Source: Escherichia phage RB14. Taken from it: a stretch of 64,000 nt of DNA. The notes under the pieces were generated by a model. That model was given only the letters and a program-made list of their open reading frames with translations, had not been told where the DNA came from and made no database searches. This document shows, in pieces, positions 1,276 through 21,472 of this stretch. The translations under genes and the position numbers were made by a program. The stretch's first letter is position 1. The number at the start of each line of letters is the position of its first letter. The stretch lies in sequence record NC_012638.1; one strand, 5' to 3'.

Positions 1276-2559
1276 ATGGCTAAAATCAACGAACTTCTGC
1301 GCGAATCAACCACAACGAATAGCAACTCAATCGGTCGCCCAAATCTCGTTGCTTTGACTCGCGCTACCACTAAATTAATATATTCTGACATTGTAGCAAC
1401 GCAAAGAACTAATCAACCTGTTGCTGCTTTTTATGGTATCAAATACCTTAACCCAGACAATGAATTTACATTTAAAACTGGTGCTACTTATGCTGGCGAA
1501 GCTGGATATGTAGACCGAGAACAAATCACAGAATTAACAGAAGAGTCTAAATTAACTCTCAATAAAGGCGATTTATTCAAATATAATAACATCGTTTATA
1601 AAGTATTAGAAGATACACCATTTGCTGATATTGAAGAAAGCGATTTAGAATTAGCTCTTCAGATTGCAATTGTTCTTTTAAAGGTTCGTCTATTTTCTGA
1701 CGCAGCGTCAACAAGCAAATTTGAAAGCTCTGATAGCGAAATTGCGGATGCTAGATTCCAGATTAATAAATGGCAAACCGCAGTTAAATCTCGTAAACTT
1801 AAAACTGGCATCACAGTTGAATTAGCACAAGATTTAGAAGCAAACGGATTCGATGCTCCTAATTTCTTGGAAGATTTGCTTGCAACTGAAATGGCAGATG
1901 AAATCAATAAAGATATTCTGCAGTCTTTAATTACAGTATCAAAACGTTATAAAGTTACAGGAATTACTGATACTGGATTCATTGATTTGAGTTATGCATC
2001 TGCACCTGAAGCTGGTCGTTCATTATACCGAATGGTATGTGAAATGGTTTCGCATATCCAAAAAGAATCAACTTATACAGCAACGTTCTGTGTTGCTTCA
2101 GCTCGTGCTGCTGCGATTCTTGCTGCATCAGGTTGGTTAAAACATAAACCAGAAGATGATAAATATCTTTCACAAAATGCCTATGGGTTCTTAGCTAATG
2201 GTTTACCGCTTTATTGCGATACTAACAGCCCATTAGATTATGTAATCGTTGGCGTAGTAGAAAATATCGGTGAAAAAGAAATTGTTGGATCAATTTTCTA
2301 TGCTCCGTATACAGAAGGTCTTGACTTAGATGACCCTGAACATGTAGGTGCATTTAAAGTTGTGGTTGATCCAGAAAGTTTGCAGCCATCTATCGGTTTA
2401 TTAGTTAGATATGCTTTATCTGCAAATCCTTATACCGTAGCAAAAGATGAAAAAGAAGCAAGAATAATTGATGGTGGAGACATGGATAAAATGGCGGGTC
2501 GTTCAGATTTGTCTGTTTTATTAGGTGTTAAGCTACCAAAAATTATTGTTGATGAATAA
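1276..2559 (+). CDS. 24: Capsid vertex protein gp24
   Basis: 427-aa ORF directly after gp23, paralogous capsid fold, length equals T4 gp24. Confidence 0.93.
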   Translation: MAKINELLRESTTTNSNSIGRPNLVALTRATTKLIYSDIVATQRTNQPVAAFYGIKYLNPDNEFTFKTGATYAGEAGYVDREQITELTEESKLTLNKGDLFKYNNIVYKVLEDTPFADIEESDLELALQIAIVLLKVRLFSDAASTSKFESSDSEIADARFQINKWQTAVKSRKLKTGITVELAQDLEANGFDAPNFLEDLLATEMADEINKDILQSLITVSKRYKVTGITDTGFIDLSYASAPEAGRSLYRMVCEMVSHIQKESTYTATFCVASARAAAILAASGWLKHKPEDDKYLSQNAYGFLANGLPLYCDTNSPLDYVIVGVVENIGEKEIVGSIFYAPYTEGLDLDDPEHVGAFKVVVDPESLQPSIGLLVRYALSANPYTVAKDEKEARIIDGGDMDKMAGRSDLSVLLGVKLPKIIVDE

Positions 2560-2565
2560 AACAAA

Positions 2566-2590
2566 GGGACCTTTCGGTCCCTTTTTATTT
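2566..2590. terminator. Bidirectional terminator between convergent genes 24 and rnlB
   Basis: Hairpin gggacc-tttc-ggtccc flanked by A-run and T-run. Confidence 0.8.
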
Positions 2591-3593
2591 AACTTACCAA
2601 TTCAATCCAAGCCGGACGAAGTACATCTTGTACCATTTTAACTAATTCCTTTTTAATCAAAGAAGGATTATCCGCTTGAGTTAGAGTAATACCTTCACGA
2701 GAAGTTTCTTCCAAAATATCTTGAACAGTTAGTCCCATCACCTTTCCAAAATCTTTTGGACCAATTTCGCCAATTTTAGAAATAACGTTATTTACTCGGT
2801 TCAGTGTAACGTAGCAAGCTAAAATTCCCAGCAATTTATTATCAGCTTCTGACAGCTCAACTTTAGCTTTAATAGGCTTATCAGACTTTTTCTTTTCGCT
2901 AAATTTAGAGTTCTTGCATTTAATAGCTACACGATTGCCATTAGGCATCCAAGAAGGATAACAAGGTTTCAATACATATCCTTCAGCAGTAAATACTTCG
3001 CCTTTTGCTTCGGCATTCCAAACGCATTTATTTGCATCAACTAATCCAGCATGGTCTACCGTAAAATTATAATCCTGGACTACAGAATCTAAATCATTTG
3101 GCAATTTAATAAGCTCTTCAAATTTACCACGACCTAAAAGTGGAGCCATTTTAAATTTAAATGTATTACAGAATGATTCCATCATATAATCATCGACATA
3201 AGTCACATCACCGCTTTCGGTAGTAACAATAATGTCAAATACATAAAAATCTTTATCGCCATAATCGACATTCTTCTGAATGCCAGGTCCAGCGAATTCG
3301 CCAAAAACTTGATAAGATACAACCGCTGAAGTTTCCATAATATCTTGCACTGCTTCGATAGAATCAGCGTAATTCTTTAGAATAATTTCATACCCAAAGA
3401 AATCTTCAGCAGGAAGAATAGGACCAGTACGTTTAGCGCAAGTTACTTTATCACGCTCAATAATCAATGAGAAATTTGTGCCGTGAATCTTTTCACGAGC
3501 TACCCATTCGCCGCCAGTCAATCCCAGGCTATAAAGTTTTTCAATAAATTTAGAGTTGTAATGATTTTCAAGACTGCTATACTTTTTAAACAT
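2589..3593 (-). CDS. rnlB: RNA ligase 2 (Rnl2)
   Basis: 334-aa ORF; N-terminus [16 protein letters not shown]... and nucleotidyltransferase lysine motif (KIHGTN) recognised as T4 Rnl2. Confidence 0.93.
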
Positions 3594-5311: not shown

Positions 5312-5992
5312 TTATTTTAATGTTACGAAAGAAGAATTGCGTGTTTCACGAATTAGAACTGATCCGTCGCGGTTAATGTAATAAATTAAGCTAAATAAAG
5401 TTTGGTGTGCTGACGCATGCTCAAAACTTGTTGGGTGAGATTTCCAATCCGGAGTTTCAGCAATCCACTGGTAAATCCACCAAGGAACAGTACAGAATCC
5501 TGGATTTTTCCCAATCAGCTGAAGATTCGGACTAAAGTTTTCCGGAAGAGTAAATACAGACGGCTTTTCAGATTCAATAATCTCAGCTACAGCCTGTTCA
5601 AATTTTTCTTCAACAAAAGGAGTATCTTCAATCAAAACATCGGTATTTTCAGGAATTTTATCCGTTTCTACTACTTCAATTTTAATGTCAGATTTAACCG
5701 GAGAATCAATCAGAAGTGCTGCTTCTGGATTGACTTCTTCATCGTCATATTTTAATCCCTCTGCGGCATCAGCAGCATCAATTAAGTCTTTAATAGATAA
5801 CCCATCAATCTCTGGCATAGGTTCACTAGCAAGCTTCTGGAGGGCTTCTTCAATATCAACAACGATATTATCAAAAGATTTATTCTTTTTGACCTTTATA
5901 CCAAACTGTTCAGCATATTCAGCTAATTTAGCTTTAGCTTCTTTATTATCATCAAGAGCCTTCAGCTCTGCAATATAATCTTTATCTATCAT
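5312..5992 (-). CDS. inh: Inhibitor of prohead protease (Inh)
   Basis: 226-aa acidic ORF between hoc and segE, recognised as T4 Inh. Confidence 0.85.
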   Translation of the reverse strand: MIDKDYIAELKALDDNKEAKAKLAEYAEQFGIKVKKNKSFDNIVVDIEEALQKLASEPMPEIDGLSIKDLIDAADAAEGLKYDDEEVNPEAALLIDSPVKSDIKIEVVETDKIPENTDVLIEDTPFVEEKFEQAVAEIIESEKPSVFTLPENFSPNLQLIGKNPGFCTVPWWIYQWIAETPDWKSHPTSFEHASAHQTLFSLIYYINRDGSVLIRETRNSSFVTLK

Positions 5993-6005
5993 AATATTTC
6001 CTCAG

Positions 6006-6013
6006 TATAAATA
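6006..6013 (+). promoter_or_regulatory. Late-promoter motif TATAAATA upstream of segE
   Basis: Exact TATAAATA 29 nt upstream of the segE ATG. Confidence 0.6.
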
Positions 6014-6041
6014 TAGATATATTTATTACTCGGAAAATAGT

Positions 6042-6659
6042 ATGTACCACTTTGTATATGAAACAACAAATCTAATAAATGGTAAAAAGTATATAGGAAA
6101 ACACTCTACTGATGACTTGAATGATGGTTACCTTGGTTCTGGTAAGGCAATTCAGCAGGCTATAAAGAAATATGGTGAAAACAATTTCTCTAGAACAATA
6201 CTAAAAGAGTTTAAAACTTCCGAAGAAGCGTACATATATGAAGAAGAAATTATAACTCCTGAAATAATAAAAAGCAAAAATTATTATAATATGAAACCTG
6301 GTGGAATTGGTGGAATTGTTATGACTACAGAGGTTATAGCAAAGATGAAAGAATCTTCCGCTAAGAGATTTGAAAACTCACCGGGCACGGTATTAGGTAC
6401 AACTTGTTACACTAATGGAACTAAAAATATTTTTATTAAACCTGGAGAACTTGTTCCAGAAGGATTTGTAAAAGGGATGGTTCATCCTAATAGAAAGTCC
6501 AGAAAAGGATGTAAAGTCAAACCAACTACCACAGGAACTTTTTGGGTCAATAATGGTGCAATAAATAAATTAATACAACCAGACGGTATTATTCCCGACG
6601 GATTTATTAAAGGTCGTCTCATGAAAAGAGATTCTAAAGGCAAATTTAGTAAGGCATAA
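6042..6659 (+). CDS. segE: GIY-YIG homing endonuclease SegE
   Basis: 205-aa ORF; N-terminal GIY-YIG module (FVYETTNLINGKKYIGKH...YLGSG); located between inh and uvsW as in T4. Confidence 0.9.
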   Translation: MYHFVYETTNLINGKKYIGKHSTDDLNDGYLGSGKAIQQAIKKYGENNFSRTILKEFKTSEEAYIYEEEIITPEIIKSKNYYNMKPGGIGGIVMTTEVIAKMKESSAKRFENSPGTVLGTTCYTNGTKNIFIKPGELVPEGFVKGMVHPNRKSRKGCKVKPTTTGTFWVNNGAINKLIQPDGIIPDGFIKGRLMKRDSKGKFSKA

Positions 6660-6661
6660 TT

Positions 6662-8170
6662 ATGGATATTAAAGTACATTTTCACGACTTCAGCCATGTA
6701 CGCATCGATTGTGAAGAGAGCACGTTCCACGAATTAAGAGATTTCTTTTCGTTTGAGGCCGATGGATATAGGTTTAATCCTCGCTTCAGATATGGCAACT
6801 GGGATGGACGAATCCGTCTATTAGATTATAATCGCCTTCTTCCATTCGGCTTAATCGGGCAAATTAAAAAGTTCTGTGATAATTTTGGCTATAAAGCCTG
6901 GATTGACCCACAAATTAACGAAAAAGAAGAATTATCAAGAAAAGATTTTGATGAATGGCTTTCTAAATTAGAAATCTATTCAGGAAATAAAAGAATTGAA
7001 CCACACTGGTATCAAAAAGATGCAGTGTTCGAAGGATTAGTTAATCGTCGTAGAATTCTTAATCTTCCAACATCCGCAGGTAAATCTTTAATTCAAGCTT
7101 TGCTTGCACGTTATTATTTGGAAAATTATGAAGGTAAAATTCTTATCATTGTTCCAACAACTGCTTTGACAACTCAGATGGCTGATGACTTTGTTGATTA
7201 TCGTTTATTCAGTCATGCAATGATAAAGAAAATCGGCGGCGGAGCATCAAAAGATGATAAATATAAAAATGATGCACCGGTAATTGTTGGTACATGGCAA
7301 ACTGTAGTAAAACAACCAAAAGAATGGTTCTCACAGTTTGGAATGATGATGAATGATGAATGCCATCTTGCTACAGGAAAAAGTATTTCATCTATAATAT
7401 CAGGTTTAAATAACTGCATGTTTAAATTTGGTCTATCAGGTTCATTACGTGACGGCAAAGCTAATATCATGCAGTATGTTGGAATGTTTGGTGAAATATT
7501 TAAGCCAGTAACGACTTCTAAATTAATGGAAGATGGACAAGTAACTGAGCTAAAAATTAATAGTATTTTTCTTCGTTATCCTGATGAGTTCACTACTAAA
7601 TTAAAGGGAAAAACTTATCAAGAAGAAATAAAAATTATTACTGGACTCAGTAAAAGAAATAAATGGATCGCTAAATTAGCTATTAAGCTTGCGCAAAAAG
7701 ATGAAAACGCTTTTGTCATGTTTAAACATGTATCGCATGGTAAAGCTATTTTCGATTTAATTAAAAATGAATACGATAAAGTTTATTACGTATCAGGGGA
7801 AGTTGATACCGAAACACGCAATATAATGAAAACCTTAGCTGAAAATGGTAAAGGAATAATTATAGTAGCTAGTTATGGTGTATTTTCTACTGGCATTTCA
7901 GTTAAAAATCTTCATCACGTTGTTTTAGCGCACGGTGTTAAATCAAAAATCATTGTATTACAAACAATTGGTCGTGTATTACGTAAGCATGGTTCTAAAA
8001 CAATCGCAACAGTCTGGGACCTCATAGATGATTGTGGTGTTAAGCCAAAATCTGCTAATACTAAAAAGAAATATGTTCATTTGAACTATCTTTTAAAACA
8101 CGGCATTGATCGTATTCAGCGCTATGCAGATGAAAAATTTAATTACGTAATGAAAACAGTTAATTTATAA
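6662..8170 (+). CDS. uvsW: UvsW SF2 helicase
   Basis: 502-aa ORF with Walker A (LPTSAGKS), DECH box (MNDECH) and helicase C motifs. Confidence 0.93.
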   Translation: MDIKVHFHDFSHVRIDCEESTFHELRDFFSFEADGYRFNPRFRYGNWDGRIRLLDYNRLLPFGLIGQIKKFCDNFGYKAWIDPQINEKEELSRKDFDEWLSKLEIYSGNKRIEPHWYQKDAVFEGLVNRRRILNLPTSAGKSLIQALLARYYLENYEGKILIIVPTTALTTQMADDFVDYRLFSHAMIKKIGGGASKDDKYKNDAPVIVGTWQTVVKQPKEWFSQFGMMMNDECHLATGKSISSIISGLNNCMFKFGLSGSLRDGKANIMQYVGMFGEIFKPVTTSKLMEDGQVTELKINSIFLRYPDEFTTKLKGKTYQEEIKIITGLSKRNKWIAKLAIKLAQKDENAFVMFKHVSHGKAIFDLIKNEYDKVYYVSGEVDTETRNIMKTLAENGKGIIIVASYGVFSTGISVKNLHHVVLAHGVKSKIIVLQTIGRVLRKHGSKTIATVWDLIDDCGVKPKSANTKKKYVHLNYLLKHGIDRIQRYADEKFNYVMKTVNL

Positions 8171-16697: not shown

Positions 16698-16701
16698 CAA
16701 T

Positions 16702-16732
16702 GGGGACCTTTCGGTCCCCATATTTTTATTTA
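16702..16732 (+). terminator. Terminator after gene 54
   Basis: ggggacc-tttc-ggtcccc hairpin then T-rich tract. Confidence 0.8.
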
Positions 16733-17016
16733 CGGAATGAAATAAAAGCAGCAACTGAAGCAACTAAACTGTCTTCAATATAAACTTCAATTTTTACCGG
16801 AGCTTCTGACTCAAATTTACCTGTTACTACACCTTGAAAAATACTTTCAGTCTGTTCTGGCTTTGAAAAATTTTCAGAAGGAAAAATTCCGAACTTTTTA
16901 TCTGTTCCAAAAATTTTGATAAATTCATCGTAAACTGCTTCATTAAAAGCATTATCAGCAGGAATAACGCCTTCAACGACGAGTTCTTGACCTAAAAAGC
17001 GCAAAGAAGATTTCAT
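16726..17016 (-). CDS. Hypothetical protein (position of T4 alt.-3)
   Basis: 96-aa ORF; SD GAGG 10 nt upstream of ATG. Confidence 0.75.
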   Translation of the reverse strand: MKSSLRFLGQELVVEGVIPADNAFNEAVYDEFIKIFGTDKKFGIFPSENFSKPEQTESIFQGVVTGKFESEAPVKIEVYIEDSLVASVAAFISFRK

Positions 17017-17023
17017 TTTGTGT

Positions 17024-17077
17024 TCCTCATGTTATGTCAGTAAGACTACTATAACACAACATGAGGGACTTGTAAAC
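17024..17077 (-). promoter_or_regulatory. T4-type early promoter nested in an inverted repeat
   Basis: On - strand GTTTAC, 18 nt, TATAGT; 9-bp arms at 17025-17033 and 17058-17066, downstream arm contains the SD. Confidence 0.65.
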
Positions 17078-19134
17078 TACATTTTGAACTTTTTAGACAT
17101 TCCGTTGATGTTAACCAAAGAAGCTAAGATTTGAGAAACTTCGTTTTCCTCTTCTTTTGATTCTTCTACAAGGAATTGATTAAATCCAGCCATTGGACGA
17201 ACTTCACCAGTTTCCATTAGATGGTCGCCATCATATACTGATTCTTCTAATTGTTCAGAAGGAGGAACGATTGTACCTTCGATTAGATACTTGTTATAAG
17301 CAGTTTCTTTCATAAAGTAAGTACTTACTTTATTAATCTTCAGTAAAATTCCACGTGGTAGAATAACTTCAGCTTCTGATGGAAATCCTGATAAATGACC
17401 CGGAACGATAACTTTAACTCGTTCAGCTCCTTTAATTACCATACCCACGCTAGTTTCAGCATCTTCATTAGCATATGTAGAATGACTACCCATATGCATC
17501 AAATCTTCTGCATCAACAGAACCTTCTCCTTCGCCAGAAAATACTGCACCGGAATCATCTAGAGCCATATAGTTTTTACCATGCTCACCGAAGATATTTG
17601 GTTTAAGTGATGTCGATACGAAGTTCTTGAAATAGAACATTTTATTTTCAATGTTATGACGCAAAGTTTTAAAAGTAACTTCTTGTCCACGGTAAAGTGT
17701 AGTTCCTGGAGGAAGAACTGAACCTTTAGCAAACGCAGAATCCATAGTCTCGATGTGCTTAATAGCGCGCTCCATGTATTCTTCACGTGTAGAATCAGGT
17801 TTACCTAAAAGGAATGAGTTCATTTCAACATACGAATCTGCGCAATAATCTTCAATTACATCAGACTCAGCCTGAGTCAATCCTTTTGGAGTTACTTCAG
17901 TGCTTGCATATTCATACGCCTGAGCAGCGGATTCATCAATTAATTTATAAATTCCATTCATTACAAATTGAATAATAGCTGTCTTTTCATCTGGTGTAGC
18001 TTTAGAACCTTTAACTAAATCATTGATAATTTTCTTAATAACATCAAAACTATTAGAAATATTAATATCAGCAAGATCGCTTAAAATTTTATCAGTTTTG
18101 TAATTAAAGAAGTCTTTATTCTTTAAATATTCCTGGGAACCTTGATATGATGTATCGCTCTGCAACTTGATAGATGGATCGCGTAAACGTGCATGGGCTA
18201 ATGCAATATGATTTCGGAAACTTTCTAGTTCATAATCGTTAGATTTAAAACGAGAAGCACTTCTCATACCGCCGATAGCTCCTTTGCCGAAGTTTGAACC
18301 AATCTGAATAACGCCAGAGTTCATTGGTCCTTCTGCTTTATATACCGGAACTTTAGATTCAAACTCTTGATATTTCTTAGCAGCGAAGCTATCACCCTGA
18401 AGTGAAGCATCAACAGTAGAATATTGAGCTTGTGCTGCTAATCGACGACTAATTTTAGTTTTCTGAATAACAGCTTGATCCGTACGCTTATCATTTTCTA
18501 AAGCAATAGAAGCAGCAACTGCGACAGCTTTAGGAACAGCATTACCTGTTTTAACGTCTACATAAACATCACCAACCTTTGATTCAACTTTTGTGAATAA
18601 CTCAGTTGAAATAGGAGGTACACCTGGAATGTCTTCTAAATTGGCATTTTTACGGTAAACCATAATATATGCATATTTCTTATCATAGTCCCAGATTTCC
18701 TTTAAAAGAACATATCGACCTGCTCCTTTAGTACGTACTAAACGGTCAGCAATAACTTGCATTTGACGAGCAGCGCCATTTGTTTTACTTTTTAGTACGC
18801 GGAATAGGCATGCATCAATTTTATACTGTTTCATTGTTTGAAGAGCAGTATCAAAAACCGCATTAATGACACCAATTGGATTTCCACCCAAGTTTTTAAG
18901 CTTAACTAACGATAATTTCTCATTAACACCTATCATTACGATATGCATCATTTTGTCGCCTGGCTTAACGTTTTTATTCGTATCACCGCCAGAGGTGTAT
19001 GTACAAAATCGAAATCCAGGAAGAACGCTTTCTTCACCGGCTTGAATAGCAAAAATTTGAGGTATTTTATGCTTAGGATTTAAGTTAACAACCGGCGCCG
19101 AAGCGCCGTCAAATAATTCTGTAATAAGTTCCAT
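17077..19134 (-). CDS. Alt-family mono-ADP-ribosyltransferase paralog
   Basis: 685-aa ORF; shares N- and C-terminal blocks with the adjacent 698-aa ORF; Arg (LYRGQ), STS (FVSTSL) and ExE (SEAEVILPRG) motifs. Confidence 0.85.
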   Translation of the reverse strand: MELITELFDGASAPVVNLNPKHKIPQIFAIQAGEESVLPGFRFCTYTSGGDTNKNVKPGDKMMHIVMIGVNEKLSLVKLKNLGGNPIGVINAVFDTALQTMKQYKIDACLFRVLKSKTNGAARQMQVIADRLVRTKGAGRYVLLKEIWDYDKKYAYIMVYRKNANLEDIPGVPPISTELFTKVESKVGDVYVDVKTGNAVPKAVAVAASIALENDKRTDQAVIQKTKISRRLAAQAQYSTVDASLQGDSFAAKKYQEFESKVPVYKAEGPMNSGVIQIGSNFGKGAIGGMRSASRFKSNDYELESFRNHIALAHARLRDPSIKLQSDTSYQGSQEYLKNKDFFNYKTDKILSDLADINISNSFDVIKKIINDLVKGSKATPDEKTAIIQFVMNGIYKLIDESAAQAYEYASTEVTPKGLTQAESDVIEDYCADSYVEMNSFLLGKPDSTREEYMERAIKHIETMDSAFAKGSVLPPGTTLYRGQEVTFKTLRHNIENKMFYFKNFVSTSLKPNIFGEHGKNYMALDDSGAVFSGEGEGSVDAEDLMHMGSHSTYANEDAETSVGMVIKGAERVKVIVPGHLSGFPSEAEVILPRGILLKINKVSTYFMKETAYNKYLIEGTIVPPSEQLEESVYDGDHLMETGEVRPMAGFNQFLVEESKEEENEVSQILASLVNINGMSKKFKM

Positions 19135-19137
19135 GAT

Positions 19138-21234
19138 TTATCCTTGAACGAACTTGTAAGGCATGTTTGTAATATCTATGCAAGACGCAATAATTCCAAG
19201 AGATGATTCTACTTTCTGTTTAACGTTTGATGAAACAAATGATGCAAAGTCAACTCTGTCTTCTATTTCAGTATCACCTGTCATTGCAACTACTTCACCG
19301 GTTTCCATTAAATGGTCTCCGTCATAGATTACCGATTCGGTGAGCTCTTCCGTGGTCATAACTTCAGCTTGAATGAGTTTTGTATTATTAGATGTTGTTC
19401 CGTCATTATTAGAAGCATCAGTTATTTTATTAACTTTGACCATCAATCCACGCGGTAGAATAACTTCAGCTTCTGTTGCTATTCCGAGACTTCCTGGATA
19501 TACAACATTAACTTTATGAGCTCCATCAATTGCCCATCCTATTTGAACTTTAACGTATTCAGGATTTTCTTTATACGCTCTTATTTCGTTTGGATTAATA
19601 GTTATTCCTTCTTCATTTTTATCAACTGTTAATTCATTGCGAGCTTCTGGTTCTAAAAGACCAATACCAGCATGTGTGATTCCAAAACGTCCAAAAATGA
19701 TAGGAGTTAAAGAAGTAGATACAAAATTTCTGAAGTAGAACACTTTATTTTTAACTAACGCTTCATATATAGGAGCAGTCATACTTTGAGCACGATAAAC
19801 TGTAATGCCTTCTGGTATACGGTCACCATTTTCAAAAGCTGAATCTAAGTTATTTATAGCAGATTCAATTTCTTTTTCACTCATTACATCATATCGTTCT
19901 GGATTGTAACGACCTAAAAGAAGATTATTGATGTCAGTATATCCTGAACCGCAATATTCTCTAATGCCACGCTTTTGTGATGGAGTATATTTAGAACCAT
20001 CGCGGGCAATAGTAATATCAATCATTGGACCAGCACCAATTCCAGAAAAACTGTAAATCATTCGTTTGAGGAATTTAGTTTTTGCTGCGTTCCAGGAATT
20101 TTTAGTTATTTCTTCCCAGACTTCATCTGGTTGTCCTTTACGATTTTTATTATGATTAGCAAGCCATTTATCTTTATAATCTTCAAAGAATTGATTTACA
20201 GCTGCTGCGTATTTCTCTAAACATTTTATTGAAGTAGTTGGTTCATTTTTAATTGCATTAAAAATTACTTCTTTAATTTTTTCTGAAACTTCACCGACTT
20301 GACTCATTGGAAAGAATTTATAATCATAGTGAAGTTCATCTGCCGTTCCTTCAGCAATAATTTTTGCTGCCTTTGTTTTAGAAGCTAATGAATTAATTCC
20401 AATTTTCATTTCTTCTGCTTCGGGAATTAAAGGTGCAGTAGCTGGTTTATTAAAATTAGCTGCTGTAGATTCATACTTCTGGAATAATTCACTTTCAAAT
20501 CTAGAAGATTCCAATGACTGACTTTGTGCAATTGCTCTACGGGAAATTTTAACTTTAACGATTACGGCTTGGTCAGAACGTTTATCATTTTCTTGTGCAA
20601 TAGATGCAGCAATTGCCTCATTTTTGGTTACTTGAGCTCCAGTATCTTTATTGATATAAACATCACCGACCTTCGATTCAACTTTAGTAAAGAGCTCGGT
20701 GCTAATTTCTGGAACTCCTGGAATGTCTTCTAGTGATACATTTTTACGATGTATAAGAATATATGCATACTTTTTATCGTAATCCCAGAGTTCCTTAAGA
20801 AGGACGTATCTGCCACCTGAACGACTGCGGATGAGTCTATCAGCAATAAGTTGAATTTGTCGAGCTTGACCGGCGGTTTTAGACTTAAGAATACGAAGCA
20901 TGCAGGCATCAATTTTATATTGACGCATTGTTTGCATTGCAACAGTAAAAACTGAATTGATATAATTAATCGGGCTTGGACCAAGACCTTTTAATTTAGC
21001 AATTGAACCTTTAGCAGTTAATGTAAAAGGAACAATATGCATCATTTTATCGCCCATCTTTAAATCACGATTAGTATCACCTCCAGATGTATAGGTACAT
21101 AAACGAAAGCCTGGTTGTTCAATTGCATCATCAACATGAACTGAAAAAATTTGTGGTATTTTCTTCTTTGGATTTAAGTTTGTAATCGGAAGAGTAGTAT
21201 CTTCGTCAAATAATTCTGTAATGAGTTCCATCAT
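19138..21234 (-). CDS. alt: Alt ADP-ribosyltransferase
   Basis: 698-aa ORF (MMELITELFD...; second ATG 21231 has better SD spacing); YRAQ / FVSTSL / TEAEVILPRG motifs; adjacent to ligase. Confidence 0.85.
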   Translation of the reverse strand: MMELITELFDEDTTLPITNLNPKKKIPQIFSVHVDDAIEQPGFRLCTYTSGGDTNRDLKMGDKMMHIVPFTLTAKGSIAKLKGLGPSPINYINSVFTVAMQTMRQYKIDACMLRILKSKTAGQARQIQLIADRLIRSRSGGRYVLLKELWDYDKKYAYILIHRKNVSLEDIPGVPEISTELFTKVESKVGDVYINKDTGAQVTKNEAIAASIAQENDKRSDQAVIVKVKISRRAIAQSQSLESSRFESELFQKYESTAANFNKPATAPLIPEAEEMKIGINSLASKTKAAKIIAEGTADELHYDYKFFPMSQVGEVSEKIKEVIFNAIKNEPTTSIKCLEKYAAAVNQFFEDYKDKWLANHNKNRKGQPDEVWEEITKNSWNAAKTKFLKRMIYSFSGIGAGPMIDITIARDGSKYTPSQKRGIREYCGSGYTDINNLLLGRYNPERYDVMSEKEIESAINNLDSAFENGDRIPEGITVYRAQSMTAPIYEALVKNKVFYFRNFVSTSLTPIIFGRFGITHAGIGLLEPEARNELTVDKNEEGITINPNEIRAYKENPEYVKVQIGWAIDGAHKVNVVYPGSLGIATEAEVILPRGLMVKVNKITDASNNDGTTSNNTKLIQAEVMTTEELTESVIYDGDHLMETGEVVAMTGDTEIEDRVDFASFVSSNVKQKVESSLGIIASCIDITNMPYKFVQG

Positions 21235-21254: not shown

Positions 21255-21262
21255 TATTTATA
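21255..21262 (-). promoter_or_regulatory. Late promoter (TATAAATA on - strand) upstream of alt
   Basis: TATTTATA on + strand about 20 nt upstream of the alt ATG. Confidence 0.65.
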
Positions 21263-21283
21263 AAATTAAAGGCCCGAAGGCCT

Positions 21284-21472
21284 TTAATAATCTATTGGTA
21301 ATAGAGTACGATATATTTCAAACTTTGGACCTTTTTCATAAGCATCAAAAGTTTCTGTGAATTTATTATAAGCATATGCATCTATAAATTCAATCATGAT
21401 TTGCGATACAGAAGTAGAAACATCTCCACCTTCTTTTTGAGCCACGACAATTGTTTCTAAGTAAGCTTTCAT
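21284..21472 (-). CDS. Hypothetical 62-aa protein
   Basis: ATG overlaps ligase stop (ATGA). Confidence 0.6.
   Translation of the reverse strand: MKAYLETIVVAQKEGGDVSTSVSQIMIEFIDAYAYNKFTETFDAYEKGPKFEIYRTLLPIDY

Follow-up and report, generated by a model that had tools for sequence, protein, structure and literature searches.

The alt locus of Escherichia phage RB14 (NC_012638.1), contained in a 64,000-nucleotide (nt) stretch of its genome that we refer to as the window, carries two adjacent full-length genes of the Alt family of ADP-ribosyltransferases (ARTs) on the minus strand, the upstream one called Alt1 and the downstream one Alt2 throughout. We consider it likely, with a rough probability of 0.7, that they form a two-gene late operon whose products are both packaged, trimmed and injected arginine mono-ADP-ribosyltransferases, most likely with different targets. 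This reading builds on the observed integrity, homology, fold, motifs, selection and distribution of the genes, and on the origin of a remnant found in phage T4.

Two tandem full-length Alt genes

The window belongs to a Tequatrovirus (T4-like) genome, and the 5 kb around the gene pair are 99.2% identical to phages RB68, Ac3 and RB51. The original prediction, made from the DNA letters and a list of open reading frames (ORFs), had described two adjacent intact ORFs of 685 and 698 amino acids (aa) separated by 3 nt, and the ORF listing contains both. The longer one opens with two consecutive ATG codons, and because the second (21231, MELITE...) is the annotated start in RB51, T2 and T6 and lies at a more suitable distance from the GAGAGGA ribosome-binding site than the first, we correct the length of Alt1 from 698 to 697 aa. 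The genes, their junction and the regions of Alt2 are as follows:

19138..21231, minus strand: Alt1, 697 aa from the second ATG (698 aa from the ATG at 21234), T2/T6-type effector allele
19135..19137, minus strand: intergenic gap ATC, 3 nt, from the Alt1 TAA (19138-19140) to the Alt2 ATG (19134-19132)
17077..19134, minus strand: Alt2, 685 aa, Alt-family ADP-ribosyltransferase paralog
18430..19134, minus strand: Alt2 N-terminal domain, aa 1-235, common to Alt1, with the MELITE propeptide and ITE-6 (E6 codon 19117-19119)
17860..18429, minus strand: Alt2 central region, aa 236-425, mostly helical, the most diverged part
17260..17859, minus strand: Alt2 ART catalytic domain, aa 426-625
17077..17259, minus strand: Alt2 C-terminal segment, aa 626-685 plus stop, with LEE-631 and then the YDGDHLMETGE block

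The two proteins are 42% identical over their full length (BLASTP, E = 3e-160), a likeness far beyond chance. In Alt2 numbering, identity amounts to 68% in the N-terminal domain (1-235), 21% in the central region (236-425), 36% in the ART domain (426-625) and 43% in the C-terminal segment (626-685), which agrees with the predicted divergent centre between conserved ends; the common blocks quoted in support of it (MELITELFD, GFR.CTYTSGGDTN, YKIDAC, GRYVLLKE.WDYDKKYAYI, EVILPRG and YDGDHLMETGEV) were all found. PHROG 802, 'Alt-like RNA polymerase ADP-ribosyltransferase', is matched over positions 2-674 of 674 by both proteins (E = 6e-273 for Alt1 and 1e-255 for Alt2). Both also match Pfam PF03496, the ADP-ribosyltransferase exoenzyme family (1e-37 and 9e-20, respectively), and no NCBIfam model matched either one. 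Both are thus homologous to gpAlt from end to end, including the N-terminal domain, and the description as two tandem full-length Alt-family paralogs stands. Both share a four-part layout consisting of a conserved N-terminal domain of about 235 aa that begins with a 6-residue propeptide ending in the prohead-protease motif I-T-E, a variable helical centre, the ART domain and an acidic C-terminal propeptide following an L-x-E motif.

Genomic position also places the pair in this family. In the window gp29, gp48 and gp54 on the plus strand are followed on the minus strand by alt.-3 (DUF5498), Alt2, Alt1, alt.1 (PF24647) and DNA ligase, an order and strand arrangement that agrees with the annotations of T4, RB51, T2 and T6, and the junction CAAGGATAAATCATG between Alt1 and Alt2 is the same in RB51, T2, T6 and T4. 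Each protein is 97-100% identical to its counterpart in RB51, T2 and T6. T4 Alt (NP_049811), to which Alt1 is 72% and Alt2 42% identical, holds the genomic position of Alt1, between alt.1 and the baseplate genes.

The pair is widespread. A megablast search of GenBank phages with the Alt2 gene matched 496 records, 400 of which, including T2 and T6, hold at least 80% of the gene, and a tblastn search with the protein matched 1,220 records, 401 of them with an Alt2-type copy at 80% identity or more. RB51, RB68, T2, T6 and about 400 other Tequatrovirus records carry the pair at 95-100% identity with the same order and 3-nt gap, and pairs of the RB51/RB68/T2/T6 type do not differ in substance from that of the window. 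RefSeq calls both genes 'Alt-like RNA polymerase ADP-ribosyltransferase', while the label of Alt2 varies between GenBank records ('alt.-2' in RB51, 'alt.-1' in T2). Duplications of alt in T4-like phages, including a full-length one in Aeromonas phage 44RR, have been reported (Nolan et al., 2006, PMC1524935), and a 2026 paper on 6phi13/SHFML-11 describes two Alt-like paralogs, 43.29% identical, and proposes that their functions diverged once the gene had been duplicated (PMC13600099). The tandem pair is therefore already known at a descriptive level and is the majority state in Tequatrovirus, with T4 as the exception, and the original prediction overestimated its novelty. Added here are the origin of T4 alt.-1 and alt.-2, the date of the duplication, the strong purifying selection on Alt2, which extends to its catalytic and cleavage residues, and the replacement and exchange of the effector module.

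Catalytic motifs and ART fold

The catalytic residues of the two proteins map to the following positions:

19465..19794, minus strand: Alt1, R480 (19792-19794), S505-T-S507 (19711-19719) and E587-A-E589 (19465-19473)
Minus strand: Alt2, R482 (17689-17691), S507-T-S509 (17608-17616) and E587-A-E589 (17368-17376)

A complete Arg / STS / ExE triad had been claimed for both, and careful alignment revealed no loss of a catalytic residue in either; the R, S-T-S and E-x-E residues are invariant among 12 family members that range down to 42% identity. E-x-E, as opposed to Q-x-E, is a signature tied to arginine specificity. A search of the PDB with Alt2 as a single sequence returned nothing at E <= 0.01, and only the profile of the 12 sequences reached C3-type ARTs, matching the solved structure 4xsg at 3e-8 with the family YRG placed over VYRG and EaEViLPRG over QYELLLPRN. 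In an AlphaFold model of full-length Alt2 the ART region has pLDDT values mostly between 70 and 90, except in a loop at about residues 520-555. The top Foldseek matches of this model in the PDB are Vis, Certhrax, CDTa, C3bot and VIP2 (E = 4e-9 to 1e-6, probability 1.00), with target TM-scores of up to 0.70 for the single-domain ARTs Vis and C3bot. The model thus assigns Alt2 a C3/VIP2/Vis-type ART fold, the fold of the R-S-E clade, consistent with the triad kept in both proteins and with the earlier impression that both look enzymatically competent. Placement of Alt in an Alt/VIP2 clade goes back to Iyer et al. (PMC5512222).

Exchange of a residue picked as essential for ART activity in T4 Alt, E577A, abolished ADP-ribosylation in vivo (PMC11404850). 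We infer that this residue is the second glutamate of E-x-E, which is E576 in the NP_049811 count, an offset of one residue; that count puts the two glutamates at E574 and E576 (T4 locus 5455-7503), and the T4 protease site LTE-619 fits the same numbering. T4 Alt has the R/STS/ExE, ITE-6 and L-x-E motifs in common with Alt1 and Alt2. The ART fold and motif triad are likewise common to the C3, VIP2, iota, CDTa, Vis and Certhrax toxins and to T4 ModA/ModB, but the bacterial R-S-E toxins have neither the N-terminal domain of Alt nor its helical linker and two protease-removed propeptides, and ModA/ModB, which we compared by description, are described as ARTs that are expressed early and, in contrast to Alt, are not delivered from the head.

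Predicted late expression, packaging and processing

Two putative expression signals lie upstream of Alt1:

21255..21262, minus strand: TATAAATA, T4 late-promoter consensus, starting 30 nt upstream of the Alt1 ATG
About 21271-21288: terminator-like hairpin AAAGGCCTTCGGGCCTTT, just upstream of TATAAATA

Six Tequatrovirus loci conserve the TATAAATA motif at -30 and T4 conserves it at -35, and it would represent a late promoter. No terminator was found between Alt1 and Alt2 at the locus, and an AAGGA Shine-Dalgarno sequence for Alt2 lies within the last codons of Alt1. This sequence and the 3-nt gap suggest that the genes are co-transcribed and their translation coupled, in which case a single late transcript from TATAAATA would span both. 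A second TATAAATA occurs inside Alt1 (19851-19858, minus strand, gene nt +1374), about 715 nt upstream of Alt2, and is kept in RB51, T2, T6, EH2 and ESh18. We do not claim it as an internal late promoter for Alt2, since it is absent in G50 and TATAAATA is no more frequent in the window than chance would predict (12 observed, 8.7 +/- 3.1 expected).

T4 Alt is a prohead core component, present in about 40 copies, that leaves the head together with the DNA and then ADP-ribosylates proteins of the host, RNA polymerase among them (PMC9026906; PMC5512222). The prohead protease gp21 cuts it (PMC9026906), and mass spectrometry has located the cuts, which take off 6 residues at one end (ITE-6) and 63 at the other (LTE-619) (PMC5694885). 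Corresponding motifs are present in both window proteins, namely ITE-6 and LTE-632 (E632 codon 19336-19338) in Alt1, and ITE-6 and LEE-631 (E631 codon 17242-17244), which occupies the alignment column of T4 LTE-619, in Alt2. Both cleavage-motif glutamates are invariant across the 12 family sequences, which places the two paralogs in the Alt family at the motif level, and the C-terminal block contains eight invariant residues in Alt2 numbering (E631, Y634, D635, G636, D637, E641, G643 and E644). Cleavage at LEE-631 is predicted to release a C-terminal propeptide of 54 aa from Alt2. The predicted mature forms are 626 aa and 70.1 kDa for Alt1 and 625 aa and 69.1 kDa for Alt2, and without the acidic C-terminal propeptide the calculated pI, about 6 before its removal, rises to 7.3-8.0.

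By analogy with T4 Alt, both proteins would enter the prohead core via their common N-terminal domain and propeptides, and gp21 would trim them at both ends to about 69-70 kDa. Ejected with the DNA, they would use NAD+ for arginine mono-ADP-ribosylation of proteins of the next host. The TATAAATA motif by itself predicts late synthesis only, which would equally suit an Alt2 that is not packaged and acts late in the producing cell, for example on translation or defence factors, much as ModA/ModB act early. We regard this as improbable, because MELITE/ITE-6, the L-x-E motif and the conserved C-terminal propeptide, which in T4 Alt mark prohead-protease sites, would then be kept without obvious purpose.

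Age of the duplication and selection on Alt2

Dhakavirus phages (IME281/JS10) carry a pair with the same tandem layout, in which the upstream copy is orthologous to Alt1 and the downstream copy to Alt2; in IME281 it lies between alt.1 and alt.-3 and is annotated with a 3-nt gap. Alt1 is 67% identical to the upstream copy of IME281 and Alt2 51% to the downstream copy, whereas the paralogs within a genome are 43-44% identical. Because orthologs are closer to each other than paralogs are and the pair is present in IME281, the Alt1/Alt2 duplication is older than the split between Tequatrovirus and Dhakavirus.

Across seven Tequatrovirus genomes (mean synonymous divergence, dS, 0.20), the ratio of nonsynonymous to synonymous divergence (dN/dS) of Alt2 is 0.045 overall, with 0.019 for the N-terminal domain, 0.073 for the central region, 0.039 for the ART domain and 0.041 for the C-terminal segment; the value for Alt1 is 0.058. 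No internal stops were present in Alt2 of the seven phages compared. Judged by this low ratio, the constraint on all regions and the absence of internal stops, Alt2 is a maintained, functional gene where present. The N-terminal domain is the best conserved part, and Alt is listed among the core proteins of T4 (PMC9026906; PMC11404850), both of which speak for an Alt2 that is kept for its N-terminal domain and not for catalysis, either as a pseudo-enzyme or mainly as a structural or scaffolding part of the core of the prohead. Such a role is very unlikely given that R482, S507, S509, E587 and E589 are invariant, that purifying selection on the ART domain is strong as well and that phages which lost Alt2 still assemble heads.

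T4 alt.-1 and alt.-2 derive from Alt2

The original prediction left open whether T4 carries the second copy intact or as split ORFs. T4 (NC_000866) has one intact alt gene, followed by the small ORFs alt.-1 (61 aa, NP_049810) and alt.-2 (67 aa, NP_049809), which its record describes as 'an old duplication of the first part of gene alt'; the second copy is therefore present only as a 5' remnant, and T4 holds no identical intact paralog of known function. Over the first 348 nt of the window Alt2, the remnant DNA shows 95.7% identity to that gene but only 73% to Alt1; beyond this point it resumes in the last few bases of Alt2 and runs on through the spacer to alt.-3, with 95.9% identity. Two lesions separate it from an intact Alt2. 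The first, near codon 53, is the loss of 1 nt from an A-run, which produced the alt.-1/alt.-2 split, and the second removed the following span:

17088..18795, minus strand: span missing in T4, a 1,699-bp deletion between 9-bp direct repeats CTAAAAAGT (18787-18795 and 17088-17096)

Since the remnant differs from intact Alt2 by these two lesions, T4 once had Alt2 and lost it: alt.-1 and alt.-2 are a full-length Alt2 that decayed by deletion, and not a duplicated first part of alt. PHROGs 23015 and 15247, profiles of 61 and 67 residues, match Alt2 residues 1-56 and 62-117, the stretches that correspond to T4 alt.-1 and alt.-2, and fit Alt2 much better than Alt1.

Among the low-coverage records of the sampled megablast listing, five have a T4-like 5' remnant of 348 nt and one, Escherichia phage sutha, retains the last 128 nt only. 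The sutha locus (PV245934.1, 5001-7204) consists of one Alt of 696 aa followed by a 38-aa ORF that matches only these last 128 nt of Alt2. Loss of Alt2 in sutha is independent of the T4-type deletion.

Modular history of the alt genes

The module comparisons cover nine genomes and are indicative, short of a full recombination analysis. Within a genome the N-terminal domains of the paralogs are 67-68% identical in both genera, while orthologs between the genera are only 46% identical in this domain. Recent gene conversion was rejected as the cause of the common N-terminal block, given a paralog dS of about 1.5, which is saturated, and a DNA identity of 67%. The likeness probably reflects either old homogenisation or common adaptation to one prohead core, kept at the protein level.

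A different pattern emerges between the window Alt1 and T4 Alt. The proteins are 99% identical in the N-terminal domain and 94% in the C-terminal segment, but 36% in the central region and 65% in the ART domain. At the DNA level, identity is 94% in the first 807 nt and 95% in the C-terminal segment (dS about 0.15), compared with 53% in the central and 68% in the ART portion (dS about 1.2). T2-type and T4-type Alt1 are thus two alleles of the effector part in one frame. Counting GenBank phages with at least 80% of the query covered, the T2-type allele is found in 337 records and the T4-type allele in 175, and a T4-type Alt1 also occurs alongside a full-length Alt2, for example in PYps15T (H76, H165) and phiC600P9 (H51, P0019).

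The ART module of the window Alt1 (19330-20060) is 95% identical in aa and 90% in nt to the upstream copy of IME281 (1413-3497), with a dS of 0.48, while the N-terminal 680 nt of Alt1 gave no BLASTN match to that copy. This suggests exchange of the ART module of T2-type Alt1 between the genera. Because the N-terminal domains are 46% identical between genera but the Alt1 ART modules 95%, parts of the Alt gene have different histories. A 684-aa metagenome assembly protein, P0005, is a chimera of Alt1 type over approximately residues 1-190 and of Alt2 type in the remainder. Its make-up looks as expected from unequal crossing-over of tandem paralogs within the conserved N-terminal block.

Probable target divergence

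For Alt2, these data lead us to infer late transcription, packaging and processing, followed by injection, enzymatic activity and targets that differ from those of Alt1. The two enzymes would modify different, possibly overlapping, sets of host proteins, and different target sets are the most likely reason for keeping both, because the central region, the insert between STS and ExE and the ARTT turn differ strongly. The turn reads GFPSEAE in Alt2, GIATEAE in Alt1 and APSNEME in T4 Alt, and the insert is long in addition to being divergent. Among the targets reported for T4 Alt is MazF.

Several points weigh against this picture. Full-text literature searches found no virion proteomics, activity assay or mutant phenotype for Alt2, and literature on the function, packaging and targets of the second paralog consists of descriptive mentions (PMC1524935, PMC13600099); papers on bacterial NLR-related proteins that surfaced as literature on Alt were false positives for the word stem 'alt'. 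Conserved motifs alone do not prove catalysis or packaging, the AlphaFold model of full-length Alt2 is of moderate confidence (pLDDT 70, pTM 0.50), and the argument for target divergence is drawn from sequence divergence only. T4 and about 96 other database phages keep only the Alt2 remnant and are viable; because these T4-type phages and sutha live without an intact Alt2, the gene is dispensable, at least on laboratory hosts.

This dispensability, together with the non-essential nature of T4 Alt itself (PMC9026906) and the architecture, catalytic motifs and predicted processing sites common to both paralogs, would also suit redundancy, with an active, packaged Alt2 that acts on the targets of Alt1 (for example RNA polymerase alpha) and raises the dose or buffers loss. 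We consider redundancy unlikely. A dN/dS of about 0.04, held since before the two genera split, is unexpected for spare copies, the ART and central regions differ in 64-79% of their residues, against 68% identity in the N-terminal domain, and the ARTT-loop sequences differ between Alt1 and Alt2. Two injected enzymes with different targets therefore remain the reading that we prefer.

The N-terminal domain beyond Alt

A profile of the N-terminal domain searched against 1.84 billion representative proteins matched 74 clusters, mostly of Alt length (600-712 aa), and four of ten atypical matches checked against Pfam contain PF03496. Four metagenomic proteins, P0180, P0182 (1,142 aa), P0183 and P0188, combine the Alt N-terminal domain with C-terminal parts that have no Pfam or PHROG match, and no PDB match was found for P0182 and P0183. 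Inspected by eye, three of the four show degenerate R/S-x-S/x-E-like motifs followed by (V/I)LP(R/K) and look like degenerate ARTs, with K/N/D in place of catalytic residues, the exception being P0183. Low sequence complexity probably accounts for the matches to P0186 and P0190, which look spurious. The idea that the domain is a portable delivery module for non-ART cargo found no support in these matches and was rejected. The N-terminal domain is essentially specific to Alt-like proteins, and its conservation between the paralogs and the T4 literature suggest a role in head targeting.

Neighbouring genes

Downstream of the pair, a sigma-70/T4-early-like promoter (17048-17076, minus strand; TTTACA-17 nt-TATAGT with an extended-10 TG, 10/12 matches) directly follows the Alt2 stop and precedes the start of alt.-3 (16726-17016). 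Because of this position, alt.-3 may have its own early promoter, apart from the late alt operon. Beyond alt.-3, at 16700-16721, lies a strong bidirectional terminator hairpin.

Upstream of the pair, the alt.1 homolog is a 62-aa protein that belongs to Pfam PF24647, 'Phage blade protein', and to PHROG 1976, where its function is unassigned. The T6 record NC_054907.1 annotates its homolog (463-651; window counterpart 21284-21472) as 'siderophore-interacting protein', a name that looks carried over by similarity and is probably wrong.

Implications for phage-injected ADP-ribosyltransferases

As a more speculative extension, which we hold to be possible but doubtful, the alt locus could be a two-slot cassette system with a genus-specific delivery frame around an exchangeable effector module, and Alt2 a second, distinct injected effector. 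The frame may comprise the N-terminal approximately 235 aa and the C-terminal propeptide, kept alike between the paralogs of one genome, and the module may comprise the helical region and the ART domain, swapped by recombination between phages and even between genera. Compatible with this are T4-type and T2-type Alt1 alleles that differ in the module only, the 90% nt identity of the T2-type ART module to Dhakavirus despite saturated flanks, natural chimeras with an Alt1 N-terminal and an Alt2 C-terminal part, and the independent losses of Alt2. If it were true, the target of Alt2 might be a host defence or toxin instead of RNA polymerase, and decades of work on T4, which is without Alt2, would have missed it.

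The pair itself is ordinary and annotated, and the value of the analysis lies in a reminder of a well-conserved, uncharacterised effector and in a corrected description of T4 alt.-1 and alt.-2. Knowledge of phage-injected ADP-ribosyltransferases comes almost wholly from T4, which lost the second enzyme. If the preferred reading is true, a pair of distinct Alt enzymes is injected by most relatives of T4, among them T2, T6 and many therapeutic isolates, and where T-even phages differ in how they take over the host or in how sensitive they are to bacterial defence systems, the targets of Alt2 could be the reason.

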